Origin: an uncultured bacterium
GTDB taxonomy: Bacteria; Patescibacteriota; Gracilibacteria; UBA1369; PNNO01
Reading direction: 5' to 3'
Assembly: GCA_963704705.1 (NCBI GenBank)
Contig: OY969931.1
Span: forward strand, 210,001-242,000
DNA length: 32,000 nucleotides
A model generated the notes under the pieces. It saw nothing but the letters and a program-made list of their open reading frames with translations, was not told the DNA's origin and ran no database searches. The translations under genes and the position numbers were made by a program. Every line of letters begins with the position of its first letter. The first letter of the stretch is position 1. Shown here piece by piece: positions 6,765 to 32,000 of this stretch.

Positions 6765-7433
6765 TTAGATGTGTTTTTTAATTAAGCTAAGATAAGTAGC
6801 AAAATCATTTGTTAACTGAGCATTCCTTAGTTCATCTGTCTCATCTCTTATAAGGCCTGTTTCATTGCTGCCAAGTGCTCTTTTTATAGAAAAATTATAT
6901 ACCCTATATGTTGCTTCCATTTGGTCCTGTAGAAATTGTCTTGTTTGTTCATGATTCCATAATAAAAACTCATCGGTTTCTTCAGCGCTTTTTGGATAAC
7001 CGTTTCCGATAAATAAAACAACTCCTTTATCCAAAGTAATATCAATAAGGCTCTGAATATATGCTTTATTTCTATTAAAATTTTCTTCAGCTGCTTCCTG
7101 GCTGCCTCCAACATAATCATTCGGACCTAATCCAACCAAAATTAAATTAACATATCCATCTACTTTTTTATCAACCAATTCCTGAACTAAATCTTTTGCA
7201 TCCAACCCAGAGTTAACTTCGTGGAAAATAAAAATATTATCTGTTTTCTGCTCAGCATTTGCCATTTTTTCTTTTAAATAATTAAACCATCCCTGATATT
7301 CAGGCCCACCAATTAAATTCACATAATAGGGCTGAGTTTCATCTATATCCACTAAACCGTTTCCATCAATTGTAGGTCCGCAAGCTGTTAATAAAACTAG
7401 TCCTGCTGCCAAAAAAGCTAATACTTTTTTCAT
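6765..7433 (-). CDS. Putative lipoprotein, function unknown (weak SGNH-hydrolase-like GxND block)
   Basis: The track ORF 6765..7493 starts at a TTG and overlaps ahcY. The internal ATG at 7433 gives MKKVLAFLAAGLVLLTAC|G, a textbook lipoprotein signal with a lipobox. ILVGLGPNDY resembles SGNH block III, but no GDS block I serine is visible. Confidence 0.6.
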   Translation of the reverse strand: MKKVLAFLAAGLVLLTACGPTIDGNGLVDIDETQPYYVNLIGGPEYQGWFNYLKEKMANAEQKTDNIFIFHEVNSGLDAKDLVQELVDKKVDGYVNLILVGLGPNDYVGGSQEAAEENFNRNKAYIQSLIDITLDKGVVLFIGNGYPKSAEETDEFLLWNHEQTRQFLQDQMEATYRVYNFSIKRALGSNETGLIRDETDELRNAQLTNDFATYLSLIKKHI

Positions 7434-7471
7434 AATATTATTGGTTAATAATTTCGGTTTTGGATTATACT

Positions 7472-8710
7472 CTACGAAGTGCCTTCCTGCCAAGAGTTCA
7501 AATATTCAATTTGTTCAGGAGTTAGCTCGTCGATTTCTACATCCATTGTTTTAAGCTGTAGTTTTGCGATTTCATCATCGATTTCTGCTGGAAGCTGAAT
7601 AACTGCATTACCGAGCTTACCTTTATTTTTAACTAAAAATTCACAAGCGAGTGCCTGGCCGCAGAAGCTCATGGACATAACATCAGATGGGTGTCCTTCA
7701 GCTGCCGCTAGGTTAATTAAACGGCCTTCTCCTAAAATATAAATATGACCAGGACCTTCTATTTCAAATTTTTCCATAAAGGGTCTTACTTGCTCTGTAT
7801 GCTTTGCAATTTCGCGAATACCCTTCACGTCTATCTCAATGTCAAAATGGCCTGAATTCGCAAGAATCGCGCCCATTTTCATTGTTTTAACGTGCGCCGG
7901 GCTTATAACATGTTTATTACCGGTAACCGTAATAAAAATATCTCCGATTGGTGCTGCGTCTTCCATTTTCATCACTCTAAATCCATCCATATGTGCCTGA
8001 AGTGCAGGGAAAGCATCAACCTCTGTAACAATAACATTTGCACCCAAACCTTTTGCTCGCATGGCAGTGCCCTTACCGCAGCTTCCATATCCTGCGACAA
8101 CAACAGTTTTTCCGCAAACCAAAGTATTTGTTGCCCTTAAAATACCGTCCCATGTTGATTGGCCGGTTCCATAATAATTATCCATTAAATGTTTTGTATT
8201 GTTGTCATTAACAGCTATAACCGGATATTTTAAAGCACCTTCCCGAACCATTGAATGAAGTCTGATAATTCCTGTTGTTGTTTCTTCACATCCGCCGATA
8301 ATTTCATCCATTAAATCAGTTCGTTTTGTATGAATTTCAGTAACCAAATCACATCCGTCGTCTATTGTAATATTTGGTTTTATATCCAGTACATTATTTA
8401 GGCAGGCATAATATTCCTCAGAAGTCTGACCTTTTTTGCCATACGCTTTCATTCCTTTCGCTCGCAAAGCTTCTGCTACATCATCCTGAGTTGAAAGTGG
8501 ATTACACCCTGCAACCGCTACTTCTGCACCCCCGGCTTCCAAAGTTTCAACAAGGTTTGCTGTTTCTTTTGTTATATGAAGAGCCATGCCGATTCGCACA
8601 CCCTTAAGTGGCTTTTCTTTTTCAAATCGTTTTTTGATTTCCATTAAAGCACCCATGTTTTCTTTTGCGAGTGCCATATTATTTTCTCCCTGCTTTATTA
8701 AATTATTCAT
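7472..8710 (-). CDS. ahcY: Adenosylhomocysteinase (short, about 410-aa type)
   Basis: KPLKGVRIGMALHITKETANLVETLEAGGAEV is the substrate domain. VVVAGYGSCGKGTAMRAKGLGANVIVTEVD is the NAD Rossmann motif, and GHFDIEIDV is also present. The start overlaps the metK stop as TAATG. Confidence 0.95.
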   Translation of the reverse strand: MNNLIKQGENNMALAKENMGALMEIKKRFEKEKPLKGVRIGMALHITKETANLVETLEAGGAEVAVAGCNPLSTQDDVAEALRAKGMKAYGKKGQTSEEYYACLNNVLDIKPNITIDDGCDLVTEIHTKRTDLMDEIIGGCEETTTGIIRLHSMVREGALKYPVIAVNDNNTKHLMDNYYGTGQSTWDGILRATNTLVCGKTVVVAGYGSCGKGTAMRAKGLGANVIVTEVDAFPALQAHMDGFRVMKMEDAAPIGDIFITVTGNKHVISPAHVKTMKMGAILANSGHFDIEIDVKGIREIAKHTEQVRPFMEKFEIEGPGHIYILGEGRLINLAAAEGHPSDVMSMSFCGQALACEFLVKNKGKLGNAVIQLPAEIDDEIAKLQLKTMDVEIDELTPEQIEYLNSWQEGTS

Positions 8711-9855
8711 TATTTAAATACGTTAGTTTTATCTGTTTGCTCCCATGTGAATTCAGGGAGTTCGCGGCCAAAGTGGCCATAGCAAGCTGTTTTTTGATAA
8801 ATTGGTCTTAATAAATTTAAACCGGTAATTATTCCTGCCGGACTTAAATCGAAATTATCCAAAATCATTTGTTCGATTTTTCTGTCATCAACTTTACCTG
8901 TTCCATAAGTTTTAACTTCAATAGATAAAGGATGGGTTACGCCGATTGCGTATGAAAGCTGAAGTTCACATTTTTTTGCGATTCCGCTCGCAACAACATT
9001 TTTTGCAATATATCTGGCCATGTAAGTTGCGCTTCTGTCTACTTTTGTTGGATCTTTTCCTGAGAAACAACCTCCGCCATGAGCAGCTGAGCCGCCATAG
9101 GTATCAACAATTATTTTTCTGCCTGTTAATCCCGTATCACCCATTGGTCCGCCAATAATAAATTTACCTGTTGGGTTAATGTAGTATTTTGTATTTTTAT
9201 CAATCAAGCCGTCGCAAACAGGTTTAATAACATATTTCTTAATATCTTCCGCGATTTCTTTTTGAGTAAGCCTTGGATCATGTTGAGCAGACACAACAAC
9301 CTGATCAATTCTTTTTGGTTTACCGTCGTGATATTCTACTGTTACCTGAGTCTTGCCGTCAGGTCTTAAATAATTTAGAATTTTATTTTTTCGAACTTCT
9401 TCAAGTTTCATAGCAAGCTTATGAGCAAGACTAATTGGCAAAGGCATGAGTTCAGGAGTTTCATCACAGGCATATCCAATCATAATTCCCTGATCACCAG
9501 CACCAAGATTTTTATCTATTGTGTGTTTTTTATTCACACCCTGTGCAATATCCGGACTCTGTTCATGAATAGAAGTGATAACACTGCAGGTTTCGTTATC
9601 AAAGCCGAATTTCGCCCTTGTGTAGCCAATATCTTTAACAACCTTCCTTGCAATATCAGGTATATCAACATAACAATTTGTTGTAATTTCACCTGCAACA
9701 AAAACCAAACCTGTTGTTACCAGAGTTTCACAAGCAACGCGTCCAAAAGGATCCTGCTCCAAAATTGCGTCTAAGATTGCATCAGAAACCTGATCTGCAA
9801 GTTTATCAGGATGTCCGCAAGTAACCGATTCCGATGTAAAGTAATGTTTGTTCAT
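8710..9855 (-). CDS. metK: S-adenosylmethionine synthetase
   Basis: [37 protein letters not shown] and [26 protein letters not shown] are hallmark MetK motifs. The length is 381 aa. Confidence 0.97.
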
Positions 9856-9975: not shown

Positions 9976-11025
9976 ATGGTAATTAAGCTTCCTGAAATCT
10001 CAATTGTGATTGTTGGATATAAAGCGAAAAAGTACCTTGATGAATGCTTTAAATCAATCCAGCATCAAACAATTTTTAGCCCGAATAATGTCGAGGTTAT
10101 TTATATTGATAATGCTTCTTTTGATCAAAGCATTGCGCATATTCAGCGAAATTATAAATGGGTTAACACGGTTCGCAACATGAAAAATATTGGATTCGGA
10201 CCTGCTTTAAATCAGGGGATACGTTATGCATCGGGTGAATATGTTTTAGTAATGAATCCTGATGTTATTCTTGAGAAGGATTATCTTGAAAATGCTGTCA
10301 AAAAAATGCAGCACGACAGGCATATTGCAGCAATCATGGGTAAAATTTATCAATATGATTTTAATTCATCAGGTAAAACAGAATTTTTAGATAGTGTTGG
10401 GATACACGCTTATGTTGATCGCGAAATTTTGAGTGCGCGCGGTGCACCTGACGAAGGGCAGTTTGAAGACCCTTGTGAAATTTTTAGTGTAAGAAATATT
10501 TGTGCATTTTATAGAAAAAGCGCATTAGAAGATGCCCAGATGCTTGGAGAATATTTTGATGAGAATTTCTTTTTATATTTGGAAGATGTTGATTTGTGCT
10601 GGAGGCTGCACTTACTTGGCTGGAAAGTATATTATTTGCCATCACTGGTTAGTTTTCATTTTCGTGATACGTACAAAGATGCAACTCTTGAAAAATATAA
10701 AGCTATTGAAAGAAGACAATTTATAATAAATGAAAGATTAATGCTCGTGAAAAATGAATTTATATTTACAATGCTGCGCGATATCTATTCTTTGGCAAAA
10801 AAGCGTTTAATTAAAAGTTTTTTTAAAGAAGGTTGGATTTCGGGTTACTTTCAGTATTTAAAAATGCTTCCAAAAACATTGAGTTGGAGGCATACAATAA
10901 TGAAAAGAAAACGTGTTACCCGCTATGATATGCAAAAGTGGTTTGTGAAATCCGGCAGTAAAAAATACGATTTTTATAAATCAAAAAATTTACAAATATA
11001 TGCAAAGCTTCCTCCGACTTACTAA
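9976..11025 (+). CDS. Family 2 glycosyltransferase (rhamnosyltransferase-like)
   Basis: ISIVIVGYKAKKYLDECFKSIQHQT, IYIDNASFDQS, then NIGFGPALNQG, VMNPDV and YLEDVDLCWR make up the typical GT-A/GT2 motif order, including the DxD-like and ED acceptor motifs. Confidence 0.85.
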   Translation: MVIKLPEISIVIVGYKAKKYLDECFKSIQHQTIFSPNNVEVIYIDNASFDQSIAHIQRNYKWVNTVRNMKNIGFGPALNQGIRYASGEYVLVMNPDVILEKDYLENAVKKMQHDRHIAAIMGKIYQYDFNSSGKTEFLDSVGIHAYVDREILSARGAPDEGQFEDPCEIFSVRNICAFYRKSALEDAQMLGEYFDENFFLYLEDVDLCWRLHLLGWKVYYLPSLVSFHFRDTYKDATLEKYKAIERRQFIINERLMLVKNEFIFTMLRDIYSLAKKRLIKSFFKEGWISGYFQYLKMLPKTLSWRHTIMKRKRVTRYDMQKWFVKSGSKKYDFYKSKNLQIYAKLPPTY

Positions 11026-12370
11026 TCAAAAAAAACCTTCGATTATAATTTTGCTGGTTTCTGACTTGCTATTTTTTTTCGCGAGTTTTTTATGTGCATA
11101 TTATTTTCGTAATTTTATTGCTGATCCTATTCAGCCGATACTTGTTTATATGCAGGCTTTGCCTGTGGCATTTTTAATTCTGATAATTGTTTTTTATTTT
11201 TTTGGACTGTATGAACAAAAAATTCGAATTGAAAGCATAAGTGAAATTTTCACTGTAATTAAAGGTATATTAATGACAGCTGTTTTGCTGATGGCTGTTT
11301 CTTTTTTATATAAATATGATTATTCACGCGGTTTTGTTTTGATTTTTGTTGGTTTTGCCATGGTTTTTTTGAATTCAGGCAGATATTTTGTGAGACTTTA
11401 TCAAAGATTACTTATTAAAAAAGGTAAAGGTATTAGTCGTATTTTGATATTGGGCGCAGGAAAGCCGGGTCGCCGTTTAGCTGAACAAATCGAGAAATTT
11501 AAAGATTTTGGTTACTTAATTGTTGGTTATGTTGATGATAAAGTTCGCAAAGACAGAGTTAATTTACTTGGCGGTATAAATGAGATTTCACAAATAATCA
11601 AAAAGTATAAAATAGATGTTGTTTACGTTTCGGATCCAACAATGGCTCACGAAAAAATGCTCGAACTAATGACAGAGTGCAGTGATTTAAATGTGCAGTT
11701 TAAACTGGTTTCATCATTATACGAAATTTTGGTCGGAAATATTAATATAAGTGAACTTGAGGGTATTCCTTCGATTGATGTGAAACCGCGAAAAGCTAAT
11801 TTTCTTTATCGATTAATCAAAAGAATAATTGATATCTTAGGATCTTTGATTCTGCTGATTTTATTTATGCCTTTTTGGCTGTTGATTGTTATTTTAATTC
11901 GGCTTGATTCAAAAGGTGCGGCACATTTTATTCATAAAAGAGTCGGGAAAGATGGAAAAGAATTTAATTTATATAAGTTTAGAACAATGAAAGGCACTGT
12001 TGGTGCATATCAAGTTGCGCCTTTAAAAGCCAGCGATGCGCGAATTACCAAGATTGGCAAATTTTTGCGAAAAACAAGTCTGGATGAACTTCCGCAATTA
12101 TTAAATGTTTTGAAAAATGATATGTCTTTGGTTGGGCCAAGACCCGAAATGCCTTTTATTGTTAAAAAATATTCAAAATGGCAAAGAAAGCGCCTTGAAG
12201 TTAAACCTGGGTTAACAGGGCTTTGGCAAATTTTGGGTAGAAAAGACCTGCCCCTTCATGAGAATATAGAATATGATTTTTATTATATACAAAACCAGTC
12301 TTTGCTTCTTGATCTTGTAATTTTGATTAAGACAGTATGGGCTGTAATAACCGCAAAAGGTGCATTTTAA
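11000..12370 (+). CDS. Polyprenyl-phosphate glycosyl-phosphotransferase (WbaP/EpsB-type initiating sugar transferase)
   Basis: There are four N-terminal TM helices and a central Rossmann-like segment (ILILGAGKPGRRLA). The C-terminal bacterial sugar transferase domain reads KRIIDILGSLILLILFMPFWLLIVILIRLDSKG...LYKFRTM...DELPQLLNVLKNDMSLVGPRPE. It overlaps the GT2 gene by 26 nt. Confidence 0.9.
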   Translation: MQSFLRLTNQKKPSIIILLVSDLLFFFASFLCAYYFRNFIADPIQPILVYMQALPVAFLILIIVFYFFGLYEQKIRIESISEIFTVIKGILMTAVLLMAVSFLYKYDYSRGFVLIFVGFAMVFLNSGRYFVRLYQRLLIKKGKGISRILILGAGKPGRRLAEQIEKFKDFGYLIVGYVDDKVRKDRVNLLGGINEISQIIKKYKIDVVYVSDPTMAHEKMLELMTECSDLNVQFKLVSSLYEILVGNINISELEGIPSIDVKPRKANFLYRLIKRIIDILGSLILLILFMPFWLLIVILIRLDSKGAAHFIHKRVGKDGKEFNLYKFRTMKGTVGAYQVAPLKASDARITKIGKFLRKTSLDELPQLLNVLKNDMSLVGPRPEMPFIVKKYSKWQRKRLEVKPGLTGLWQILGRKDLPLHENIEYDFYYIQNQSLLLDLVILIKTVWAVITAKGAF

Positions 12371-12382
12371 TCTGTAAAAACC

Positions 12383-14341
12383 ATGAAAAAAAATATCAGT
12401 ACACGGCTTGAAAAAATAATAGAATGGCTAATTTATATCTCAGTAATTATTGTGCCGCTTATATTTTTACCGCAGGTTAATTCGGTTTTTGCAGCGCCAA
12501 AGCTTTATATTTTCAGGGTAATTACTTTACTTATTATTTTACTTTGGGGTGCGAAATGTTTATTTTCTGACAAAATTAGGTTTAAATTTCCAAAGTTTTT
12601 TTGGTTTGTAATTGCATATGCAGCAATATCGATAGTTAATACTTTTGTTACAGTAAATATTTTCACAAGTTTATTTGGAACTTATGGAAGATTTTTGGGA
12701 ATTTTTACCATAATCAATTTATTATTCTGGATTTACATAGTTTTTAGTTTTATAAATACACGCGAAAAAATCATTAAACTTATTTGGTATTCAGTGATAA
12801 CTTCTTTTGTTGTAGGGGTTTATGGACTGCTTCAATATTTTGATTTATTTGTGAATATTATCCCATGGACTATGGATCCGATGGACAGGGTCTTTAGTAC
12901 GATCGGACACAGTAATCATACAGCAGCATATCTTGGAATGAATTTAATGCTTATGTTTGCCTTAATTTTTAACGAGGATAATAAGAAAAGAAAGATTATG
13001 CTTTGTATCGGGTTTGCATTGATTGGATTAGTTCTAATTTTAACTGCAAGCCGCGGTGGTGTTTTTGCGGTAATAATTGCAGGTATTGTTTGGCTGGTAT
13101 TTATTTTAAAAAGCAAAAAATTATCCAAAAAAACATTTAAATTTACAATAATCGGATTAATTATAGGAGCGATTTTCGGCATTTTATTAAGCGGACCGAT
13201 TTCTAAAATTGGCGTGGTTGAAAGAACAACATCAACAATTACCTATGTTTTACAGGGTAATATGCCGGATAGGGTAAGCTGGTGGTTAAGTAGTTTTGAA
13301 ATGATAGCTGACAAACCTTTCCTTGGGCACGGACTATCAACTTTTAAAGATATCTACAATCAATATCGCCGTACTGATTATAGGCTGCCGGATGATTCTC
13401 AGGACAATATAACGCCTGAAACAGCACATAATGAATATTTAAATATCGCCGCAACTCAGGGGATAATCGGATTTTTGCTTTATGCAGCCATGATATTTGT
13501 TCTGTTGCGTTCAGCATATAAATATATTAAGAAAGCTAATCAACAAGACAAAATAATAGCACTTAGTTTATTAACAGCTTTATTGGTTTATTTGATCGAA
13601 GTGTTTATGAGTTTTGGCACGGTATGTACACTATTTATTTTTTACACAATAATTGGCTTACTTGTGGCATATATTAATATTGAAAATAATTCCGAACTGG
13701 TATTAAAAAGGTTTATTTTATTTATAAAAGCAATTTTCATTATAGTTGTAATTTTTATTTTTGTTTTAGGTAATTATGGTGCCTTCAGGGTTATTGAGGC
13801 AGAATATTATTTTGAACAAGCAAATCATTATCAGTTAACCGGAGATTTTGAAAATGCTATTAACTCATATGATAAAACAGTAGAAATTCAGGGGCATGTT
13901 CCTAAATATTATGAAGAATATGCTAATTTTATCTTTGAATTTGCAATAAATTTACCTGAGCAGGCACAGGTAAATTATTTAAAAAATGCAGTCAATTTAT
14001 ATGCAAATGCAATAAAAATTAATAATAATTATCCAAACATACTTATGAATCAGGCCTTGGTTTATTCAAGATTAGTGGATTTATACAGGAACGATTCTGA
14101 TAATTACGAAAAATATAAATTCCTCTCAATTGAGGTAATGAAAGTAGTTATGGAGAAAATGAAAAATAATCCTTATTATGTTTATAAATTTGCAATAACT
14201 TTAAAATTTTATAAGCAGTACGAAGATGCCCTTGGACAATTTATTTTAGTAAAAGAAATAAGAAACCATTATCTGGATACTGATGAAAAAATTAAAGAAC
14301 TACAATATTTAATTTCTTCTGGCGAGCAAACTACAGAATAA
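12383..14341 (+). CDS. O-antigen ligase/polymerase-family (Wzy_C) membrane protein with C-terminal TPR-like domain
   Basis: About 12 TM helices are predicted. Wzy_C signatures include GHSNHTAAYL, LTASRGG and the loop ETAHNEYLNIAATQGIIGF. The last ~180 aa are soluble and TPR-like (YYFEQANHYQLTGDFENAINSYDKTVEI..., YLKNAVNLYANAIKINNNYPN...). Confidence 0.75.
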   Translation: MKKNISTRLEKIIEWLIYISVIIVPLIFLPQVNSVFAAPKLYIFRVITLLIILLWGAKCLFSDKIRFKFPKFFWFVIAYAAISIVNTFVTVNIFTSLFGTYGRFLGIFTIINLLFWIYIVFSFINTREKIIKLIWYSVITSFVVGVYGLLQYFDLFVNIIPWTMDPMDRVFSTIGHSNHTAAYLGMNLMLMFALIFNEDNKKRKIMLCIGFALIGLVLILTASRGGVFAVIIAGIVWLVFILKSKKLSKKTFKFTIIGLIIGAIFGILLSGPISKIGVVERTTSTITYVLQGNMPDRVSWWLSSFEMIADKPFLGHGLSTFKDIYNQYRRTDYRLPDDSQDNITPETAHNEYLNIAATQGIIGFLLYAAMIFVLLRSAYKYIKKANQQDKIIALSLLTALLVYLIEVFMSFGTVCTLFIFYTIIGLLVAYINIENNSELVLKRFILFIKAIFIIVVIFIFVLGNYGAFRVIEAEYYFEQANHYQLTGDFENAINSYDKTVEIQGHVPKYYEEYANFIFEFAINLPEQAQVNYLKNAVNLYANAIKINNNYPNILMNQALVYSRLVDLYRNDSDNYEKYKFLSIEVMKVVMEKMKNNPYYVYKFAITLKFYKQYEDALGQFILVKEIRNHYLDTDEKIKELQYLISSGEQTTE

Positions 14342-20259: not shown

Positions 20260-20856
20260 ATGCTTCCTGCTTCGTTACAAAAACTCATTGATGAACTTGC
20301 AAGACTTCCGGGTATTGGCCCGAAGTCAGCTCAAAGACTTGCTGTTTTTTTGCTTCGATCTCCGCATCAGAGAATACAACCTTTAGGGGAAGCACTTTTA
20401 AATTTAAAAGACGGATTGGCGTTTTGTGAAGAGTGCTGGCATGTAACTGAAGAGTCGCCTTGTAATATTTGTTCTGATCCCGGGCGCGAAACTCACAGAG
20501 TTTGCATTGTTGAAGATGTACTTGATGTAATTGCAATTGAAAGAACAGGAAAATATAAAGGTTTGTACCATGTTCTTCATGGGGTTTTATCTCCGGTTGA
20601 CGGCATTTCAGCTGATCAATTGAAAATTGCAGAGCTTTTTAGCCGCGTTGATAAAAATCCTGAAATAAATGAAATAATTTTAGCGACAAATCCAAGTCTG
20701 GAAGGGGAAGCTACCGCACTTTACATCCAAAAACACTTTGTTGACAACAATATTAAGATAACAAGAATCGCCAGAGGTCTGCCTATCGGATCAGATTTAG
20801 AATACGCTGATTCGGTAACGCTTGGGAAAGCGCTTCTAAATCGAACGGATTATTAG
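20260..20856 (+). CDS. recR: Recombination protein RecR
   Basis: The helix-hairpin-helix is LIDELARLPGIGPKSAQRLAVFLL and the C4 zinc finger is CEECWHVTEESPCNIC. The Toprim domain includes VCIVEDVLDVIAIE and ILATNPSLEGEATALY. The C-terminal part reads GLPIGSDLEYADSVTLGKAL. It starts 3 nt after folE. Confidence 0.95.
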   Translation: MLPASLQKLIDELARLPGIGPKSAQRLAVFLLRSPHQRIQPLGEALLNLKDGLAFCEECWHVTEESPCNICSDPGRETHRVCIVEDVLDVIAIERTGKYKGLYHVLHGVLSPVDGISADQLKIAELFSRVDKNPEINEIILATNPSLEGEATALYIQKHFVDNNIKITRIARGLPIGSDLEYADSVTLGKALLNRTDY

Positions 20857-21640
20857 AAAGCGCAAAAACAGCAGTGCCTGAGCCGCAAAGCATTACCTGG
20901 TTTGCGCCGTTTTCAAGCAGTTTACTTTTAATTTCTTCAAATCCTGCACCAGCAAAATTTTCAAAATCATTATGAATATTTTCAAAAACATCTTTTGTTG
21001 AATTTGATTCAACGCTTGCGAGCATTTTTTTAGTTTGTCCTGTATTGGCTCCGCACTGTGATAAATCGATCTTGTTATACATTAATTTTGTTGATTTTCG
21101 AAGCTGCGGAATAACAAGTATTTTATATTTTTCAGTCCAGCCGCTTAATAATAAAAGCCGGGGCAAAATTTTGATTTTTTCTCCATAGTTAGTTGCGTAA
21201 GCTGTTTCATTTTCAATGAAATACGGAACATCTTTTCCGATTCCCGCACCGATTTCACGCATTTCATCAAGGCTCAGTTTCATTATTTCCAAAGAATTCA
21301 AAGCCGTAATAATTGCTGCCGCATCACTGCTTCCACCGCCTAAGCCCGCGCCGAGCGGGATTATTTTATCAATAATAATGTCGTAGTCATGCTTAAATTC
21401 CCAGTTTTTATTTAAAGCTTTTATGGCTTCTGCAACTGTATTATTTTGAGGGTCGATCAGCTTGGCTTCGTTACCTCTAAAGCGTACGTTAAATTTACCA
21501 TCACCTTTTTCCTGTGAAATCATTATCTCATCCATAACAGGAATTTGCTGCATGATTGTTTGAATCTGATGATATCCGTTTTCATCTTTTTTAAGAATAT
21601 CCAGAGCCAGATTTACTTTTGCGAATGCGTATTTAATCAT
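20783..21640 (-). CDS. ispE: 4-diphosphocytidyl-2-C-methyl-D-erythritol kinase
   Basis: FAKVNLALDILKKDENGYHQIQTIMQQI and the GHMP kinase motif IPLGAGLGGGSSDAAA are present. The length is 285 aa. The 3' end overlaps the convergent recR by 74 nt. Confidence 0.9.
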   Translation of the reverse strand: MIKYAFAKVNLALDILKKDENGYHQIQTIMQQIPVMDEIMISQEKGDGKFNVRFRGNEAKLIDPQNNTVAEAIKALNKNWEFKHDYDIIIDKIIPLGAGLGGGSSDAAAIITALNSLEIMKLSLDEMREIGAGIGKDVPYFIENETAYATNYGEKIKILPRLLLLSGWTEKYKILVIPQLRKSTKLMYNKIDLSQCGANTGQTKKMLASVESNSTKDVFENIHNDFENFAGAGFEEIKSKLLENGANQVMLCGSGTAVFALSNNPFDLEALSQALPNQRILNLIR

Positions 21641-22814
21641 TTTTTTTTAAAGAAACAATACAGTAACATTGTAAGCCTTTTCCTTTGCCAAACGAAGTTA
21701 AATTTTCACCTGAAGTAGATATAATCCCTATTCTCATTTCCGGAATATCACATAAATTCGCAAGGTTGGCTTTAAGTTTTGGTGATATTAAGTCGATTTT
21801 TGGACGTTTGCCTTCTATCATACAGCCGATATTGTTAATCGAGTATCCGCGTTTGTTTACTTTTTTTAGAATTTTATATAGATAATTTCTGCTGTCTTTT
21901 ATTTTTTTAACTTTGCACCATTTATCAGCAAAAGCTCCCAATGATTTTTCGCCAATTGCCTGTAGTAAGCCATTGCACAACGCATGTAGTAAAACATCGC
22001 CATCTGAGTTTCCTTGTAATTTATTCTCATTTTTAAATTCAAGTCCGCCCAAAATTAAATTTCCGGTATCATCGAATTCATGGCTGTCCTGGCCGATTCC
22101 AACAAGATAATCAGAGGGAAGGTCTCCAAGTGCATGACGTACAAATTCATAATCTTCAATGGTAGTAACTTTTATGTTATGTTCGGATGCCGGTACATGA
22201 TAAACATGATGGCCCGCGGTTTCTACCAATTGGGCTTCGTCAGTCATATCAATATAATCTGCGCCAACTTTTGTAAGTGAATCTTTTAAAATTTTATATG
22301 TAAAAATTTGAGGGGTTTGAGCCAGTTTGAATTTTTCACGATCATGGCTTTTATGGATTTTAGTTTGGTTTATTTCTTTTAAAGTTGGTTTAACAGGATG
22401 CGTAACAATGCAAGCACCTTTTGAAGCAGCCTTTTTTATGCATTTTTCGATTTCCTCAAAACTAACAATCGGATTAGCACCGTTATGTATCAAAATCAGA
22501 TCTTTTAATTTAGGTTTTATGTATCTTGAAATATATTGGATTCCGTTTAGCACGCTTTCGGCCCGGGTGCCTCCGCCCGGAACCAATTTTATATTTTTTT
22601 TATTCCCCGGAAAGTATGCTTTTAGCATTTTTTCAACGGGCTTTTTAAGTTTTCGATTAATAACAATAACAATCCGATCTACTTTTGGGTGATCGTAAAA
22701 ATTAACAATCGTATGATATAAAAGCGGTTTATTATGTATTGGCAAAAGTAGTTTAGGGATTTTACCATCCATTCTTTTACTTTCACCTGCTGCTGCAATA
22801 AGTGCGATATTCAT
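21633..22814 (-). CDS. ispDF: Bifunctional IspD/IspF (MEP cytidylyltransferase / MEcPP synthase)
   Basis: The N-terminal IspD part reads IALIAAAGESKRMDGKIPKLLLPIHNKPLLYHT. The C-terminal IspF part reads VGIGQDSHEF...GNSDGDVLLHALCNGLLQA...GYSINNIGCMIEGKRPK. It overlaps ispE by 8 nt. Confidence 0.93.
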   Translation of the reverse strand: MNIALIAAAGESKRMDGKIPKLLLPIHNKPLLYHTIVNFYDHPKVDRIVIVINRKLKKPVEKMLKAYFPGNKKNIKLVPGGGTRAESVLNGIQYISRYIKPKLKDLILIHNGANPIVSFEEIEKCIKKAASKGACIVTHPVKPTLKEINQTKIHKSHDREKFKLAQTPQIFTYKILKDSLTKVGADYIDMTDEAQLVETAGHHVYHVPASEHNIKVTTIEDYEFVRHALGDLPSDYLVGIGQDSHEFDDTGNLILGGLEFKNENKLQGNSDGDVLLHALCNGLLQAIGEKSLGAFADKWCKVKKIKDSRNYLYKILKKVNKRGYSINNIGCMIEGKRPKIDLISPKLKANLANLCDIPEMRIGIISTSGENLTSFGKGKGLQCYCIVSLKKND

Positions 22815-26210: not shown

Positions 26211-26243
26211 TTGCCTGCGTTTTTTAAGCTTAACCAAAATAAA

Positions 26244-26870
26244 ATGGAAATTAAATGGCACGGAGAAAGTACTTTTACGATAAAAGGCAAATCAACAACA
26301 ATAGTTATTAATCCGGTTGAAGGAGGCAAGCACAGTTTAAAAGAAGTTAAAGCTGACACAATACTTCTTACAGATGATTATCATGAAAAAGCAAAGTTAG
26401 TTAAAGGATGTGAAAAAGCTGAAATTATAAATTGGCCAGGCGAATATGAAGTTCAGGGAGCAGCAATTATTTCTATTCCAACATTTACAAATGAGCAAGA
26501 AGAAGGAGATTCTGATAAAGGAAGAATTGTAATTTTTAGTTTATTGGTAGATGACATTAGAATTTGTCATTTGGGTGAAATTGGCCAGGAACTCGATGAA
26601 GATATTTTGGAAAAAATCGGAGATATAGATGTTTTGATTGTACCTGTTGCATGTAAAAGAGCTCTTGATAATAAAAAAATCCATAATGCTATTGAAGATA
26701 TCGATCCTAGAGTTATCATTCCAATGTATTATGACAACACTGAAGAGCTTGAGAAATTTTTAAAAGAAATTGGCACAACAGATTATGAAGAAGTTGATGT
26801 TTTTGAAGTAAAGGCAAAAAGCTCATTACCTGAAGAGCGCACAGATGTTGTTGTTTTAAAAGCTGTTTAA
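26244..26870 (+). CDS. MBL-fold (UPF0173/UlaG-like) protein with degenerate metal-binding motif
   Basis: MEIKWHGESTFTIKGKSTTIVINP, ADTILLTDDYHEKA, ICHLGEIG and DVLIVPV follow the strand order of short MBL-fold hydrolases. The HxHxDH motif is replaced by TDDYHE. I use the ATG start at 26244; the track starts at a TTG 33 nt upstream. Confidence 0.5.
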   Translation: MEIKWHGESTFTIKGKSTTIVINPVEGGKHSLKEVKADTILLTDDYHEKAKLVKGCEKAEIINWPGEYEVQGAAIISIPTFTNEQEEGDSDKGRIVIFSLLVDDIRICHLGEIGQELDEDILEKIGDIDVLIVPVACKRALDNKKIHNAIEDIDPRVIIPMYYDNTEELEKFLKEIGTTDYEEVDVFEVKAKSSLPEERTDVVVLKAV

Positions 26871-26880
26871 ACCTTAATGA

Positions 26881-26955
26881 GTTCCCATAGTTCAATGGAT
26901 AGAACGAGGGCCTCCTAAGCTCTAAATGCAGGTTCGATTCCTGCTGGGGACACCA
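26881..26955 (+). tRNA. tRNA-Arg (anticodon CCU), CCA encoded
   Basis: GTTCCCATAGTTCAATGGATAGAACGAGGGCCTCCTAAGCTCTAAATGCAGGTTCGATTCCTGCTGGGGACACCA. It has acceptor stem GTTCCCA/TGGGGAC, D stem GTTC/GAAC, anticodon loop CTCCTAA and T arm GCAGG-TTCGATT-CCTGC. The discriminator is A and CCA is encoded. Confidence 0.9.
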
Positions 26956-27054: not shown

Positions 27055-28359
27055 ATGGAAAAAGATACTTCTACAACCGAAGCTAGTTTAAATGATAGTG
27101 AATTGGCCCCTATTAGTGATCGTGTTGAAAATAGAGTTGTTCGTGATTGGCCTACTATGGTATCAGGAGCAATAATAAGATGGCGTGTTGAAAAAAATAT
27201 GTCGTATCTTCAAGACCCAAAATCTGCTGAATTACCTCCTGATGATTGGTTTTATGAAGATGATTCACCTGAGTTTAAAGATGAAGTAAGAAGAGGAGTA
27301 GTTAGAAGTATGGAAAAGGCAAAACCCTGCCTTGTTCAAATTCTCGATAAGACTGTAAGAGATATACATACAGGTGTAAAAGAATCACCTACTGTTCAGT
27401 CAGTTCAGGAAAAGCTTGGAAAAGATTCTTTTAGATTGGCCAGGCAGCTTACAAGGTATGTTGAACTTTTAAAAGGAAGACTGCCTGATAGAGTTACACC
27501 TGAACTTCTTGAAAAAATTGCAGATACTGCAAAAGGTGCTGCACATGTATTAAATACCTGGATGACTGATGAACGTGAAGTTGCAACAATAGAAAATGCA
27601 ATAAGAGAATTCGCTGATAAAGGGGTTGTAGATAAAGAAACATGGGTTTCGATTAAAGATTTAACCGGTGAGGAATTTGTCACTGAATTATTTAAAAAAC
27701 TAGGTGTTCATATTGGTGTTCAGCCACTTAATGCTCAAGAATTAGATATGATTTATCATCAGGATATGAAGGAAGTTGTAAAATCTATTTTAGCAAAAAT
27801 AGGTATTAATATTGGAGATTCTCAAACTCAGGATGTAAAGAATCAGCAAGCAGATGTTGAAGATGTTGCAAAATTTATGCTCGGCGTATCAGGTGGTGAT
27901 GTATTAGGTAAAGATGAGTTGAATAAACCATCAACGTTAAAAAATACAACACAACGCAGAAGAACTCTTGGGACACTACAGCCACTGGTATATATTACAG
28001 CAGACAAAGGATTGTTTCCTGGCAAATCAAGCGAAGATCAGCTTGAATTAATGTCTCAGCTACAGGATGCAACCAAAGGACAGTACTTTGGCACTTTGGG
28101 AGCTTTTATTGCACTCAATTTAGCTCAAAGATCAGCTACTTTAAGACCAGTTGAGGTAGCAGAAAAAATTGGTGCGACCCCAATAAGACTTATATGTCAG
28201 GACAATATGGCAGGAGGACAAACATTTGTTGATATAAGTTATGACAGAAATAAAGGCCATGAAAATAGAACGCTAAAAAGATCAAAGGATAAAAAACTTG
28301 GAGCAGATCAAGGTGTTGGTATTGCCTGGGGAGAAGAATTTTTAATTGATGAAAAGTAG
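27055..28359 (+). CDS. Orphan soluble protein, 434 aa, no recognisable domain
   Basis: Track ORF. It has no hydrophobic segment and no nucleotide-binding or catalytic motif that I can recognise. The N-terminus is acidic, the middle looks helical, and the C-terminal region (GQYFGTLGAFIALNLAQRS...PIRLICQDNMAGGQTFVDISYD) is more conserved-looking. Coding is supported by length and codon periodicity only. Confidence 0.7.
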   Translation: MEKDTSTTEASLNDSELAPISDRVENRVVRDWPTMVSGAIIRWRVEKNMSYLQDPKSAELPPDDWFYEDDSPEFKDEVRRGVVRSMEKAKPCLVQILDKTVRDIHTGVKESPTVQSVQEKLGKDSFRLARQLTRYVELLKGRLPDRVTPELLEKIADTAKGAAHVLNTWMTDEREVATIENAIREFADKGVVDKETWVSIKDLTGEEFVTELFKKLGVHIGVQPLNAQELDMIYHQDMKEVVKSILAKIGINIGDSQTQDVKNQQADVEDVAKFMLGVSGGDVLGKDELNKPSTLKNTTQRRRTLGTLQPLVYITADKGLFPGKSSEDQLELMSQLQDATKGQYFGTLGAFIALNLAQRSATLRPVEVAEKIGATPIRLICQDNMAGGQTFVDISYDRNKGHENRTLKRSKDKKLGADQGVGIAWGEEFLIDEK

Positions 28360-28431
28360 TATTATTTGTAATGATTTTGGCTTTCTGCTCTTATAAATTT
28401 TTGAATCTAAATATTATTAATTTTAATTATT

Positions 28432-31400
28432 ATGCCTCCAGAGAGACTAACTGGTATTGGATCAGGATCAAAAGATAAATGGCCTACTCATGATGCACGT
28501 GACGATGAATTTGAAGCAACCAGAGAGATTGCAATAGGACTTGTAGATGAAGATGATTTAAAATTTATTGGAACACAACAGGATTTATTGGATAGTTATG
28601 TAAAATATAACTTTAAAAATCCAAAATCCAAATTATCTTCATTGGTAAAAAATGTTATCTGGGGATTGTGGGAAAATGAAAAAACCAGGGATAATTTATT
28701 TCCTGAAGAAATTGATACAGAAGAAAAATTAAGAGAATTTATCGATGATAAAGAAAAACATTCCACTCCGGTTGGAAGAAGTATAGTTAATTTTGCAATT
28801 TTGGCTGTAAGATCGGGTTTTGTCGCTATACCAATGAGAAGACGAGTTGAAGAACATATTGAATCTCAACTTTCATTTTTCTTGGAAGATATATTTGATG
28901 AATGGATAGAATTATTAAAAAATAAAAATGCGAAATTTAATCCTTCAAAATATAAAAATGATGAAGAAAGAAGCAAAGCAGAAGAAACATTTAGAAAAAA
29001 AATGCAATTAAGATTCAGATTAATTAGCTGGGTAAGTAATTCCGAAAAATTACATAATGAGTTGATGGAACGTTATTATATTGAAGGAAACATGAATGTT
29101 TTTGGTTTTTTCTTAAGGAAACTTCTTAATATTGATACAGCAGGAGCCAAAGTTAAAGAATTAATGATTGGCGTAATTGACAAGCAGTTTAATGATAAAA
29201 GGAAGCAATTATTGGATTTAATAGATGGATTAAAAGCTGATAGTAAAAAGAAGGCAGCTAAAGAAAGAGAAGCAATCAAAGCGATTGAAATTGTTGCAGA
29301 TGGTGTTGGTGTAAAAACTGCGGCGGCGCATATCACACCAAAGCCTGGAACAATTAAAACTATTAGTGGAGTGGATATACCGGTACCAGGAAGAATTGAA
29401 GAGCCGTCAGCGTCAGATACAGACCCTGAAGATTTAGATAGTGGTTTTGATGAAGATGAAACTTCAGGTGTTTATTATGCGGAAACAGGTGAAAAAACAG
29501 AAGTTTTCAAAAAGGGAAGAAAAGTGAAATTTAAAGGAAAAAGGCCAATATCACCTACTGCACATTCAGAAAAACCTAATGAAGTTACAATAGTTCGTAC
29601 AGATATTCAGGCTTCAATTGAACCAGCAGATCAGGATACTGACGTTGATGCAATATTACCTGCAACTGAAGGAACAGACATTGATGTTGTAGCTGATCAA
29701 ACGCAAACTGATGAAGAAATCTTACATGCAAGCCACGAAGTTGAACCTGAAGAATTATCCGAAGAAGATTTGGATGAAGTTGAAGATGCTGAAGATGCTG
29801 AAGCTAGTGATCCTGAACCAGCAGCGTTGAGTGAATTCGATCTTACGCAAAATTATAATTCTGGACCAGCTCCGGCAGCACCGGAAAGAGGATTGAAACC
29901 AGTACTAAAAGTAAACACGCCAAAGGTAGTAAAACAGTATACATCTCAAGAACCAGTGCCGGCACACGAATTAGATCTTTCACATAGTGAACCAGCATCG
30001 CCAGCATCAACTGATGGTACAACTGATGCTTCATCTACTCAAGAAAGAGAAACTTTTAATGTATATCCTCCGGTTCCTGGTTTGGCAATTAAAACACCAC
30101 TGCCTGCCCAGCCAGCACTTTCAGCAACACTTAAAAAGCAAATAACAAAATTAGCTGAAAAAGCCAGTGATCAAAGACCGGAACCCGCTGCTGAACCAGC
30201 TCCTGAAGCTGCTGTTAAAGCAGTCATAAATCATGGTATAACACTCCCTGAATTACCTTCATTTAGAGATAAGCTTACCGATGAAAAAAATCCTAAAAAA
30301 CCTACTGAAAGATTAAAGTCTTGGGTAGGTAGTAATCCAAAAACTGTTAAAGCAGTAATTCTTGGAGTAGTTTTGGCTGTACTTGGCGGATCTGGATATT
30401 TGACTTACAAACACGAAGGCAAAAAAGATTCATTAAGAGGTAAAGATAAAGTTGCATCAAAATCAACAATTGATGTTAAGAAAGAAAAAGTGATTATGGC
30501 TCCTATTTCAACAATGGAATCTACTATGGAACCTTCAATGGGTCCTACGATGGCTCCTTCAATGAAAGCCCCTATGCATACGGTTATGCAAGCTGAAGCA
30601 ATGCGACAGGCAGCAACAATGCAACATGCTATGAGGCCAGAGTCAATGCAGGCACCTATGCATGCGGTAATGAGCGTTGCTGGCATGAAAGCACCTAAAG
30701 AAGTTATGGCTGCAAGTAAAGATATTATGAAACCACAGCCTGCACATAGAACAGCCCCTATTCAAAAAACTGTTGATGTAAGAGGTGCAACTTCTAATCC
30801 GCGATTTGCAAATATTGATGTCAAAACAGTAGATGATTTACCAGATGGAATTTATAAGCAAATGTGGCAAGGCAAAAAATTCAATTTAGAAGGAAATGTT
30901 TCTTATTCAAAATTTCTGGAAGATGCATTAAAAAATATGATAAAAAAACTTCCAAGAAAAGAGAGATATAAAGCTTTATATGCATACTATCAAGAACTCA
31001 GAAAAACTGAAAATGGATGGCTTCTTTATAAGAAATTGCTTGAAGAAAGTCTTGTTGAAAAGGCATTAACAAAAGAAGGTTTAACTGAAAAAGAAGAGGC
31101 ACAGCTTAAAGATTGGAATGATTATCAGAAAAGACATCGAGGAAGAGCAAAGCAGGCAAAAGAACTTCTTCAAAATTATAAATGGCTAATGAAATCAAAG
31201 AAGAAAGGCAAAGCATACAAAATGTATGAAGATTATCGTGCCAGAGGTGTCGAATTGATGGAATTCCCTGGAGTAGCTCATCTTGAAAGAAGTGCAGACA
31301 ATATATTACCTCATGAAAAAATCAGTTATGCTACCAAAGATGGAAAGGCATTAGGTACAATGGTTAGAATGACAAAAGCAATTAAAAAAGTAGCAAAATC

Positions 31401-32000
31401 CTTCCCAATGCCTGATTTAGCTATGGGTAGTACAACCGGTTCAATTGAACAAACGCCTTCTCATACGATGTTTGCTGAACATCAGGTTGATGCTCCAACT
31501 CCTCCGCCAATTCCAGCTGATGCAGTTGTTCATCAGGTTGATGATAGCCAGATTTTATCTGTTGCACCTTTGCCGCCTAATACTCCTAAATCATTTGGTT
31601 CGGCTCCAATGCCTGATCTTAAACCTGTACTTGGGGATATGCTTGCAAAGAGACCTCCTAGAATTCCTGCAGACGCAAGAGTTTATAAAATTGAACCTAA
31701 GGATATGTTTGATGTGAAAATGGCTAAACCGCAGGATTTTGGTTCAGCGCCAATGCCTGAATTAAAAGCGGTTCTAGCAGCAATGGACAGAAAGAGAAAG
31801 CAAACTCCGCCGCCAATTCCGCAGGACGCATATTATAAATTAACTGAAGATGATATTTTACCGGAACCACCACCAATTCCGGTTGAAGAAAGTCAGATTT
31901 TGAAAGTTAAAAATATGGCTCCGGAACCAAAAATGTATGGTGCGGCTCCGCTTCCAAAAGAAATTAAACCTATTTTAGGAGTTAAACCACCGGCAATTCC
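28432..32000 (+). CDS. Giant orphan single-pass membrane protein, 5' part (at least 1189 codons, continues past the window)
   Basis: It is not in the ORF track. I read frame 1 codon by codon. There is an in-frame TAA at 28408, the first ATG is at 28432, and no stop occurs through 32000. The product starts MPPERLTGIGSGSKDKWPTHDARDDEFEATREIAIGLVDEDDLKF... Antisense and out-of-frame track ORFs in this span are short and compositionally mirror-like. Confidence 0.85.
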   Translation, partial: MPPERLTGIGSGSKDKWPTHDARDDEFEATREIAIGLVDEDDLKFIGTQQDLLDSYVKYNFKNPKSKLSSLVKNVIWGLWENEKTRDNLFPEEIDTEEKLREFIDDKEKHSTPVGRSIVNFAILAVRSGFVAIPMRRRVEEHIESQLSFFLEDIFDEWIELLKNKNAKFNPSKYKNDEERSKAEETFRKKMQLRFRLISWVSNSEKLHNELMERYYIEGNMNVFGFFLRKLLNIDTAGAKVKELMIGVIDKQFNDKRKQLLDLIDGLKADSKKKAAKEREAIKAIEIVADGVGVKTAAAHITPKPGTIKTISGVDIPVPGRIEEPSASDTDPEDLDSGFDEDETSGVYYAETGEKTEVFKKGRKVKFKGKRPISPTAHSEKPNEVTIVRTDIQASIEPADQDTDVDAILPATEGTDIDVVADQTQTDEEILHASHEVEPEELSEEDLDEVEDAEDAEASDPEPAALSEFDLTQNYNSGPAPAAPERGLKPVLKVNTPKVVKQYTSQEPVPAHELDLSHSEPASPASTDGTTDASSTQERETFNVYPPVPGLAIKTPLPAQPALSATLKKQITKLAEKASDQRPEPAAEPAPEAAVKAVINHGITLPELPSFRDKLTDEKNPKKPTERLKSWVGSNPKTVKAVILGVVLAVLGGSGYLTYKHEGKKDSLRGKDKVASKSTIDVKKEKVIMAPISTMESTMEPSMGPTMAPSMKAPMHTVMQAEAMRQAATMQHAMRPESMQAPMHAVMSVAGMKAPKEVMAASKDIMKPQPAHRTAPIQKTVDVRGATSNPRFANIDVKTVDDLPDGIYKQMWQGKKFNLEGNVSYSKFLEDALKNMIKKLPRKERYKALYAYYQELRKTENGWLLYKKLLEESLVEKALTKEGLTEKEEAQLKDWNDYQKRHRGRAKQAKELLQNYKWLMKSKKKGKAYKMYEDYRARGVELMEFPGVAHLERSADNILPHEKISYATKDGKALGTMVRMTKAIKKVAKSFPMPDLAMGSTTGSIEQTPSHTMFAEHQVDAPTPPPIPADAVVHQVDDSQILSVAPLPPNTPKSFGSAPMPDLKPVLGDMLAKRPPRIPADARVYKIEPKDMFDVKMAKPQDFGSAPMPELKAVLAAMDRKRKQTPPPIPQDAYYKLTEDDILPEPPPIPVEESQILKVKNMAPEPKMYGAAPLPKEIKPILGVKPPAI
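30346..30408 (+). other. Single predicted transmembrane helix of the giant protein (aa 639-659)
   Basis: VKAVILGVVLAVLGGSGYLTY is the only hydrophobic stretch of 20 aa or more in 1189 residues. It is flanked by basic residues on both sides (KKPTERLKSW... and ...KHEGKKDSLRGK), so the topology is ambiguous. Confidence 0.65.
30496..30729 (+). repeat. Met-periodic tract (17 Met in 78 aa, mostly M-x3 tetrapeptides, with His)
   Basis: MAPIST MEST MEPS MGPT MAPS MKAP MHTV MQAEA MRQAAT MQHA MRPES MQAP MHAV MSVAG MKAPKEV MAASKDI M. At the DNA level this is a degenerate 12-nt periodicity. Confidence 0.85.
31498..32000 (+). repeat. Degenerate ~40-52-aa tandem protein repeats with PPxIP and [FY]G[SA]AP[ML]P-x2-[LI]K-x-[VI]L motifs
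   Basis: - PPxIP occurs five times: TPPPIP at 31498, RPPRIP at ~31651, TPPPIP at ~31804, PPPIP at ~31867 and KPPAIP at ~31984.
- The FGSAPMP motif occurs three times: FGSAPMPDLKPVLG at 31594, FGSAPMPELKAVLA at 31738 and YGAAPLPKEIKPILG at 31936.
- SQILSV and SQILKV also recur.
- A degenerate FPMPDLAMG lies at ~31405.
- The array is cut by the window edge. Confidence 0.8.

Follow-up and report, generated by a model that had tools for sequence, protein, structure and literature searches.

The right end of a 32,000-nt stretch of DNA from an uncultured bacterium (GTDB lineage Bacteria; Patescibacteriota; Gracilibacteria; UBA1369; PNNO01; GenBank assembly GCA_963704705.1, contig OY969931.1, positions 210,001 to 242,000 of the forward strand; hereafter the window) is occupied by a large gene whose 1255-amino-acid (aa) product we refer to as the large protein, and which is preceded by a gene encoding a 434-aa partner. 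The large protein is best described as a modular scaffold that passes the membrane once, is confined to one lineage, evolves fast and carries short linear motifs on either side of the membrane. It belongs to a family, newly defined here by sequence comparison, of Peribacteria proteins that combine an N-terminal domain, a transmembrane helix, a helical bundle and an amphipathic tail.

The reading frame opens with the ATG at 28432 (frame 1, + strand), downstream of an in-frame TAA at 28408 with no ATG, GTG or TTG between the two, and runs for 1189 codons without a stop to nt 32000, the edge of the window. At the local base composition a stop is expected with a probability of ~0.07 per codon, i.e. 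one per ~14 codons, and an uninterrupted run of 1189 codons has a chance of 10^-38 to 10^-40; none of the other five frames stays open for more than 131 codons. Translation bears out the frame as given in a preliminary description of this DNA, which had also pointed out, correctly, that the list of open reading frames omits it because it runs off the window. The same description had proposed extending the contig to reach the true stop, and this is provided by a Logan contig (L001) found through an exact-sequence lookup of the 434-aa neighbor; it is 100% identical to the window across 6,961 nt and places the stop codon 198 nt past the window, so that the window holds codons 1–1189 and the full product is 66 codons longer. 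Two orthologues, one of 1254 aa (72% identity) and one of 1217 aa (66%), align with the large protein from end to end, and the orthologues of 1217–1255 aa (n = 3) are collinear over their entire length. The whole-gene ratio of nonsynonymous to synonymous substitution (Ka/Ks, Nei-Gojobori) against orthologues is 0.21–0.32, and none of the 45-codon windows along the gene has a pN/pS above 1. Scans for promoters and terminators gave scores no better than those of shuffled sequence. Because the stop is found on an identical contig, orthologues have the same length and Ka/Ks is well below 1, we conclude that this is a genuine gene for the large protein; the identical second assembly and the orthologues likewise exclude an assembly error or a lack of homologues.

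The gene and the modules of its product are located as follows, in coordinates of the window unless L001 is named:

28432–32000 (+): large open reading frame; the last 66 codons and the stop lie outside the window, at L001 6962–7160
28432–29301 (+): N-terminal all-alpha domain (N-domain), aa 1–290 (AlphaFold2 model)
29302–30321 (+): acidic disordered linker rich in Pro, Glu, Asp and Thr, aa 291–630 (net charge −32)
30346–30408 (+): single transmembrane helix, aa 639–659 (Kyte-Doolittle peak 1.93; both flanks basic)
30496–30729 (+): Met-periodic tract, MxxxM with Pro and His, aa 689–766 (composition and shuffle test)
30814–31401 (+): basic helical-bundle domain, aa 795–990, isoelectric point (pI) 9.7 (AlphaFold2 model)
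31402–32000 (+), running on past the window: C-terminal linear-motif array, aa 991–1233 (repeat count)
L001 7104–7157 (+): amphipathic C-terminal tail KKKSLWGRAKNWFKEKLA (hydrophobic moment and helical wheel)

The overall order is shared by all full-length members of the family, that is, those with the N-domain: this domain comes first, followed by an acidic disordered linker whose length varies, one transmembrane helix, a Met/Pro-rich spacer, a helical domain, a linear-motif array and a basic amphipathic tail. The N-domain begins with a conserved disordered peptide, MPPE(K/R)LTG, and is modeled by AlphaFold2 (AF2) as 13 helices (pLDDT 86.8, pTM 0.82); both this model and that of the bundle were built from nine-sequence alignments. 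The N-terminus of the large protein is hydrophilic, with neither a hydrophobic segment nor a signal peptide, and the N-domain is thus presumed to be cytoplasmic. Its invariant residues include D24, R86, F90, P91, S128, W158 and R229, a set that does not suggest a catalytic site. Selection differs by region, with Ka/Ks values of 0.10–0.16 in the N-domain, 0.12–0.24 in the C-terminal repeats and 0.43–0.48 in the linker, which is the least constrained region of the gene and contains short conserved islands (NVxPPVPGLAIKTP and ITLPxLPSF). Each member has only one segment with a summed Hessa dGapp (apparent free energy of insertion) near or under ~3 kcal/mol, and this is the transmembrane helix, found elsewhere in the family at positions 218–648. 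Methionine makes up 17 of the 78 residues of the Met-periodic tract (22%, compared to 2.2% in the rest of the protein), with an i/i+4 spacing in 9 of 16 intervals that was matched by none of 20,000 shuffles (P < 5e-5). The tract is probably a flexible spacer, because a Pro-rich tract takes its position in other members.

The bundle that follows is modeled with moderate confidence (pLDDT 73.4, pTM 0.70) and carries an invariant aromatic signature, DLPxGxY...GW..Y...W...Y..Y. The motif array of the window protein consists of four xPMP(D/E)LKPVLG units, six PPxIPxDA units and the acidic Tyr motifs YYKL and EYASI, and its Pro-rich repeats are detectable at the DNA level as well. Members of the most distant clade contain acidic (D/E)xYYAx(I/V)E(I/V)xKPP repeats instead of the PPxIP and PMPELKPVLG units, and the window protein keeps remnants of these acidic Tyr repeats (DAYYKL, PEYASI). 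A basic amphipathic tail is present in all 11 distinct full-length members (KGIFGKVKSWFSRKAA in others of the family, with P0012 ending in KKGFFRRLFGRKAA). The hydrophobic moment of the tail is 0.44–0.75 across members, compared to 0.27–0.78 for the membrane-targeting peptides of Escherichia coli and Bacillus subtilis MinD and of E. coli FtsA. On a helical wheel the L, W, A, W, F and L of the tail fall within ~140 degrees, forming one contiguous hydrophobic face. The tail fits the MinD/FtsA-type class of membrane-targeting motifs, which is a motif class and not a protein family, and membrane binding is predicted; the concept of such sequences and their weak monovalent affinity have been described (PMC6803595). 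The large protein contains no Cys in its 1255 residues. All of the main elements noticed in the preliminary description are thereby recovered, namely the N-terminal region without a signal peptide, the acidic linker, a single hydrophobic helix (the only segment of transmembrane grade), the 78-aa Met-periodic tract, the basic helical region after the membrane and the Pro-rich tandem repeats at the window edge.

About 12 distinct homologues of the large protein were found, all of them in Peribacteria/Patescibacteria-like genomes. An exhaustive phmmer search of 1.84 billion representatives with the N-domain as query returned only 7 proteins, of 843–1163 aa (E 4.5e-85 to 2e-6), always with the N-domain at the extreme N-terminus. 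A word-indexed homologue search with the full-length protein gave at least two orthologues among the matches listed; with the alignment of the post-transmembrane domain (A4) the same type of search recovered not even its own input members, and its negatives on Lys-rich or low-complexity queries do not amount to absence. A first scan of GTDB genomes, with patterns drawn from close orthologues, found no locus, and a second, with the family alignment, found three. The loci found by genome scanning include one in a marine Patescibacteria single-cell genome (L005) and one in a 'Candidatus Peribacteria' metagenome-assembled genome (MAG) from Atacama hypersaline mats (L006; dataset ERP107533, cited in PMC7872239), and metagenome scans added a few contigs with further family loci. 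A scan of viral contigs found no relative of the large protein. In the family alignment of 10 members (A2), to which L005 was added, every protein has the all-alpha N-domain, the single transmembrane helix, the post-transmembrane bundle with DLPxGxY...GW..Y and the C-terminal amphipathic tail, and by this distribution the family is restricted to a narrow group of the Candidate Phyla Radiation (CPR). The protein is large, membrane-anchored and without named domains, as the preliminary description had it, but the designation 'giant orphan' goes too far; with about 12 homologues in related CPR genomes the protein is not a strict orphan, and 1255 aa is not giant by bacterial standards.

We note one shorter relative, at 7404–9353 (+) of L007, a contig from a MAG labeled Nitrospirota. 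This 649-aa protein has the transmembrane helix, the post-transmembrane domain and acidic NYYAEYEV repeats, and has neither the N-domain nor the amphipathic tail. Since its transmembrane helix and post-transmembrane domain occur without the N-domain, the C-terminal part of the protein (the C-module) can stand alone. The assignment of L007 to Nitrospirota may have arisen by misbinning.

Database searches did not connect the family to anything characterized. Pfam, NCBIfam, PHROGs and PADLOC gave no match for the whole protein, its segments, the family members or the 434-aa partner, and Walker A, HExxH, LPxTG and SLH motifs are absent from the large protein, in agreement with the preliminary statement that no named domain or catalytic signature is recognizable; no profile match to a characterized family arose. 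Searches of the Protein Data Bank (PDB) with sequences and profiles had a best E of 0.26. Foldseek comparisons of both domain models to the PDB, and of the N-domain also to BFVD, yielded no significant neighbor (best E 0.26–1.9, TM-score ≤0.32), values that we regard as noise, and both domains are apparently novel folds as judged from the models against these databases.

The most striking behavior of the family concerns the bundle. The window protein is 80–100% identical to its close orthologues along the N-domain, the transmembrane helix and the C-terminal repeats; between aa ~800 and 1000 it is ~50–55% identical to these and 70–80% identical to the otherwise distant P0009. Synonymous divergence (Ks) in this tract is 1.2–1.6, compared to 0.3–0.7 elsewhere in the gene, and the rise in pS places the boundaries of the replaced segment at about aa 690 and 1005 (nt ~30499–31446). 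Region-wise neighbor-joining trees with bootstrap were built for the N-domain, the transmembrane helix, the C-terminal repeats and the post-transmembrane domain. A clade of P0001, P0005 and P0006 has 100% bootstrap in the first three of these and 0% in the last, where P0001 groups with P0009 and L005 (100%) and P0005 with P0006 and P0007 (97%). L005 provides a second exchange, its N-domain grouping with P0010 and its post-transmembrane domain with P0009. From these trees we conclude that the post-transmembrane helical bundle is a cassette swapped between lineages.

To the left of the large gene lie the following features:

26211–26870 (+): gene for a metallo-beta-lactamase (MBL)-fold hydrolase (Lactamase_B_3; Pfam PF13483, E 7.7e-30)
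26881–26955 (+): tRNA-Arg(CCT) (ARAGORN and Rfam)
27055–28359 (+): gene for the 434-aa orphan partner (no Pfam, NCBIfam, PHROG, PADLOC or PDB match)

The MBL-fold hydrolase gene forms a conserved left frame and has the same position in L002, L005, L006, L008, L009 and L010, at 53–81% identity. The tRNA-Arg gene, between the hydrolase gene and the fast-evolving pair, is in the same position in 7/7 informative loci, and the right side of the variable segment is formed by conserved genes (Na/Pi transporter, MiaB-like). The content of the segment differs by genome: L006 has no partner gene, and L005 and L010 carry additional, unrelated genes. There is neither an att-like repeat of the tRNA downstream nor an integrase nearby, and a tRNA-linked genomic island was rejected for this reason.

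The partner is predicted to be soluble and acidic (pI 5.3), and, as had been stated of it before, it is itself an orphan. A search of 5.8 billion sequences found only five clusters of it. Homologues are located 5′ of the large gene in L002/L003 (81% identity), L005 (30%, E 2e-51) and L010 (24%, E 1e-18), and none was found in L006 or L008; the two genes are linked in 4/6 informative loci. Some variation around the pair is of note in its own right. The partner homologue of L010 (1918–3792, +) is 624 aa long, with an N-terminal extension of ~150–190 aa. In this same locus, which represents the most divergent clade, an inserted gene for a 559-aa protein (3905–5584, +) separates the partner homologue from the large gene; the protein consists of ~34-residue tandem alpha repeats (NLEKFEGLDHxElAxxLIexGqG), and its sole match, to the GIPC1 GH2 domain, is short and dubious. 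In L005 an unrelated 356-aa orphan (5127–6197, +) lies between the tRNA and the partner.

Gene order is common to the window and the related genomes, and their housekeeping proteins are 82–93% identical, which identifies the source of the window as a Peribacteria-like CPR bacterium. Enolase, NnrD and RecR are 82–93% identical between these genomes, compared to 25–87% for the N-domain and 23–81% for the partner; in distant comparisons the N-domain falls to 25–46% and the partner to 23–31%. With the housekeeping proteins conserved and the N-domain and partner diverged, the gene pair evolves fast while the genes that frame it do not. Across genomes, N-domain and partner identities run in parallel (87/81, 30/31 and 25/23%), whereas those of the post-transmembrane domain do not, and the co-varying N-domain and adjacent partner fit a single predicted 'N-module'; physical linkage on the DNA would give the same pattern. 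Synteny over deep divergence had been considered as evidence for a functional gene pair and was downgraded: because the flanking genes are 82–93% identical and the genomes are close relatives, the shared gene order mainly reflects relatedness. The undescribed 'system' of the preliminary description is accordingly a claim that we do not uphold, no multi-gene system having been demonstrated.

How the large protein sits in the membrane is central to its interpretation. It has no signal peptide, and 340–650 residues, comprising a folded domain and the acidic linker, precede the transmembrane helix in full-length members, which favors an N-in orientation and, by default, places the C-terminal half outside. 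In the mechanism that we propose, which is tentative and to which as a whole we assign a probability of roughly 0.4, the large protein would be an envelope scaffold or tether that crosses the membrane and possibly serves in cell-cell contact. The N-module would reside in the cytoplasm, the N-domain acting together with the co-varying 434-aa partner, and the transmembrane helix would be a signal-anchor that puts the C-module outside the membrane. The Met/Pro-rich spacer would then traverse the cell wall, the basic bundle and the multivalent motifs would engage conserved components of the envelope or of a partner cell, and the amphipathic tail would fix the distal end to a membrane surface, with the result that the protein may link the inside of the cell with the envelope or with a neighboring (host) cell. 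Such a mechanism fits the biology of the Peribacteria because these lack fatty-acid synthesis, are inferred symbionts and have strain variation concentrated in large envelope proteins (PMC4736985). An envelope-spanning scaffold or surface/host-interaction protein, as first suggested from the letters, is still the most economical reading, although the topology on which it depends is conflicted.

Several observations weigh against an envelope tether with an external C-terminal half. Neither homology nor experiment ties the large protein to any function. The C-terminal motifs are more conserved than a host-facing surface would predict, and diversifying selection on the gene was dropped as an idea, every 45-codon window being at or below 1. 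The linkage of the gene pair could stem from genome relatedness alone, and the partner is missing in L006. With regard to orientation, the C-side of the transmembrane helix is slightly richer in Lys and Arg than the N-side in 11/12 members, the tail resembles the cytoplasmic membrane-targeting sequences of MinD and FtsA, the order of transmembrane helix, charged segment, Pro-rich linker and globular domain recalls ZipA, and there is one Cys in the 7,234 residues C-terminal of the helix in family members. Scarcity of Cys had been taken as support for an external C-terminal half and was withdrawn as such, since the SLH protein of the window has 18 Cys and exported Peribacteria proteins are often Cys-rich (PMC4736985). 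The evidence for N-in/C-out and for the reverse conflicts. The SLH protein just mentioned, at 2915–6679 (+), is an unrelated protein of 1254 aa with 18 Cys and an SLH domain at aa 99–145 (E 5.7e-9); it has no further Pfam or NCBIfam match and is probably an S-layer or large surface protein of the Cys-rich Peribacteria type.

A bolder version of the envelope tether, which we regard as doubtful, is that the two genes encode an apparatus, modular and recombining, by which an episymbiotic CPR bacterium makes contact with other cells. Through the membrane, the N-module would be coupled to an extracellular cassette that can be exchanged and that determines partner specificity, and a motif-bearing tether would lead to a tail inserting into the host-cell membrane. 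If this were so, a bacterium unable to make fatty acids would have a physical bridge with which to attach and possibly to acquire lipids.

The orientation data are also the foundation of the alternative that survives best, one that is unlikely overall and still has to be taken seriously: a tether at the cytoplasmic face of the membrane, similar to ZipA, FtsA or EzrA, with an internal C-terminal half held by the transmembrane helix and the tail, and with the bundle and the multivalent Pro/Tyr motifs recruiting conserved cytoskeletal or divisome proteins. The tail, KKGFFRRLFGRKAA in P0012 for example, is much like known membrane-targeting sequences, with moments in the MinD/FtsA range, and the sequence of transmembrane helix, charged segment, Pro/Met-rich linker and globular domain mirrors that of ZipA. 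The more basic C-side flank in 11/12 members and the virtual absence of Cys C-terminal of the helix point in the same direction, and near-invariant motifs are what a conserved internal partner would predict. However, this arrangement needs an N-terminal region of 340–650 residues, with its folded domain and acidic linker, to be exported without a signal peptide. Furthermore, Pfam searches with the whole protein and segments of 10 members, at E up to 10, gave no ZipA_C, FtsA, SepF or EzrA signal, and evolution this fast, or mosaicism, is rare among divisome components.

Rather unlikely is a transmembrane receptor or signaling module, in which the bundle would be an external, ligand-exchangeable sensor coupled to a cytoplasmic output domain and the 434-aa partner. 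The bitopic layout with a helical bundle directly outside the membrane would suit such a role, as would a sensor-like domain that is swapped as a unit alongside a co-varying N-domain and partner, and the weak, non-significant Foldseek neighbors include the ligand-binding bundles of chemoreceptors (Tsr, McpS). These fold matches are noise, though (E ~4–5, TM-score up to 0.28; TMt, Tsr 3atp), no HAMP, kinase, GGDEF, HTH or anti-sigma domain was found, and the long motif array and the amphipathic tail are left unaccounted for.

We consider it improbable that the pair is a two-gene conflict or defense module, for anti-phage activity or self/non-self recognition, in a variable hotspot next to a tRNA. 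Both genes evolve far faster than their neighbors, domains are shuffled between lineages, and the content next to tRNA-Arg varies, with extra genes in L005 and L010 and the partner lost in L006. Against this stand the negative PADLOC and PHROG searches, the lack of a nuclease, ATPase or toxin motif, the lack of relatives on viral contigs and of an att repeat or integrase nearby, and purifying selection throughout; in addition, none of the related genomes examined lacks the large gene at this locus, in contrast to the patchy occurrence of defense islands.

Still less credible is a eukaryote-directed adhesin or effector mimic, in which PPPIP would be a ligand of SH3, EVH1 or profilin, the acidic YxxPhi and EPIYA- or LIR-like motifs would be docking sites, and PMPELKPVLG...KR would be a WH2-like element. 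The C-terminal repeats do match several classes of eukaryotic short linear motif, but superficially, and short motifs of this kind easily arise by chance. There is no match to WH2, FH1 or Tarp families, the would-be helix of the candidate WH2 segment PMPELKPVLGDMLAKR contains a Pro and the segment lacks LKKV, the protein is anchored in the membrane and has no secretion signal, and no eukaryotic host is known for these bacteria. The WH2, EPIYA and LIR readings of the motifs were rejected as short degenerate patterns only. Finally, an artefact (assembly chimera, pseudogene or non-coding open frame), as might be imagined from an A-rich frame with low-complexity stretches that leaves the window and has no database annotation, is refuted by the stop on the identical contig, the collinear orthologues of 1217–1255 aa, Ka/Ks values far below 1 everywhere and the confident AF2 models, and can for practical purposes be set aside.

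The CPR, or Patescibacteria, make up a large share of bacterial diversity, and to our knowledge their envelope organization and modes of cell contact are mostly unknown outside the Saccharibacteria. The family described here is a natural experiment in module exchange, with one domain swapped and the remainder of the gene in line with the species tree, and its amphipathic tail is a testable predicted membrane-binding element. If the C-module is external, the protein is a candidate determinant of partner specificity; if internal, the protein would tether the cytoskeleton or divisome of a reduced bacterium to the membrane in a new way. Both outcomes would be informative, though the family is narrow.

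Two other regions of the window bear on the biology of the lineage. The segment at 20783–22814 (−) encodes IspE and a fused IspD/IspF of the methylerythritol phosphate pathway, and as isoprenoids are reported to be made via the mevalonate pathway in 'Ca. Peribacter riflensis' genomes (PMC4736985), this lineage takes a different route to isoprenoids, or has both. At 9976–14341 (+) there is an exopolysaccharide or O-antigen-type cluster, comprising genes for a glycosyltransferase of family 2, a polyprenyl glycosylphosphotransferase (TIGR03025, E 3e-127) and a TPR-tailed protein similar to O-antigen ligases, which fits the heavy investment in surface polymers reported for the Peribacteria group.

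In comparison with known systems, the large protein resembles bitopic envelope scaffolds in layout only and is a member of none of the families compared. It departs from known anti-phage defense systems in that no PADLOC model matched it, the partner or the distant member P0011 (0 families), from WH2- or Tarp-like actin-nucleating effectors in having no WH2 Pfam match and no LKKV, and from SLH-anchored surface proteins in lacking both a signal peptide and an SLH domain, whereas the other 1254-aa protein of the window does match SLH. 'Ca. Peribacter' encodes large strain-variable extracellular proteins with predicted export and, often, a very high Cys content (Anantharaman et al. 2016, PMC4736985). 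The large protein shares with these the bacterial group, the large size, the association with the envelope and the variability between close strains, but differs in its lack of a signal peptide, its large cytoplasmic part and its complete lack of Cys. The FimV and HubP polar landmark scaffolds similarly have large, highly acidic disordered regions, a single transmembrane helix and short conserved terminal motifs; their LysM N-domain is exported by a signal sequence, however, whereas the large protein has the opposite orientation, no signal peptide, no LysM and no FimV C-terminal motif (TIGR03504/03505).

As in TolA and TonB, a single transmembrane helix leads into an extended region, Pro/Lys-rich or helical, that could reach across the wall, although in those proteins the helix is N-terminal with no large cytoplasmic domain, while here it is central and there is no match to TonB_C or TolA domain III. 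The short basic amphipathic helix at the extreme C-terminus is like those of MinD and FtsA; the large protein has no ATPase or actin-like domain and is already anchored by its transmembrane helix, and its tail may lie outside the cell, as the PBP5-type amphipathic anchor does. With the FtsZ membrane tether ZipA it has in common a charged region, a Pro-rich flexible linker and a globular domain after the helix, as well as fast evolution and restriction to a lineage, but the ZipA helix is at the extreme N-terminus (N-out/C-in), whereas ~640 residues precede it here, and the large protein has neither a ZipA_C match nor a PDB fold neighbor. The bitopic, MreB-associated morphogenetic protein RodZ differs in that the large protein is ~4 times longer, carries additional motif arrays and a tail, belongs to a narrow CPR clade, and has no HTH or DUF4115 match, its N-domain being a 13-helix fold without a PDB neighbor. 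The two nonetheless share a cytoplasmic N-domain (presumed in the large protein), a disordered juxtamembrane linker, a single transmembrane helix, a Pro-rich extracytoplasmic spacer and a C-terminal region, and RodZ is a trans-membrane coupler, the same type of role that we envisage for the large protein.

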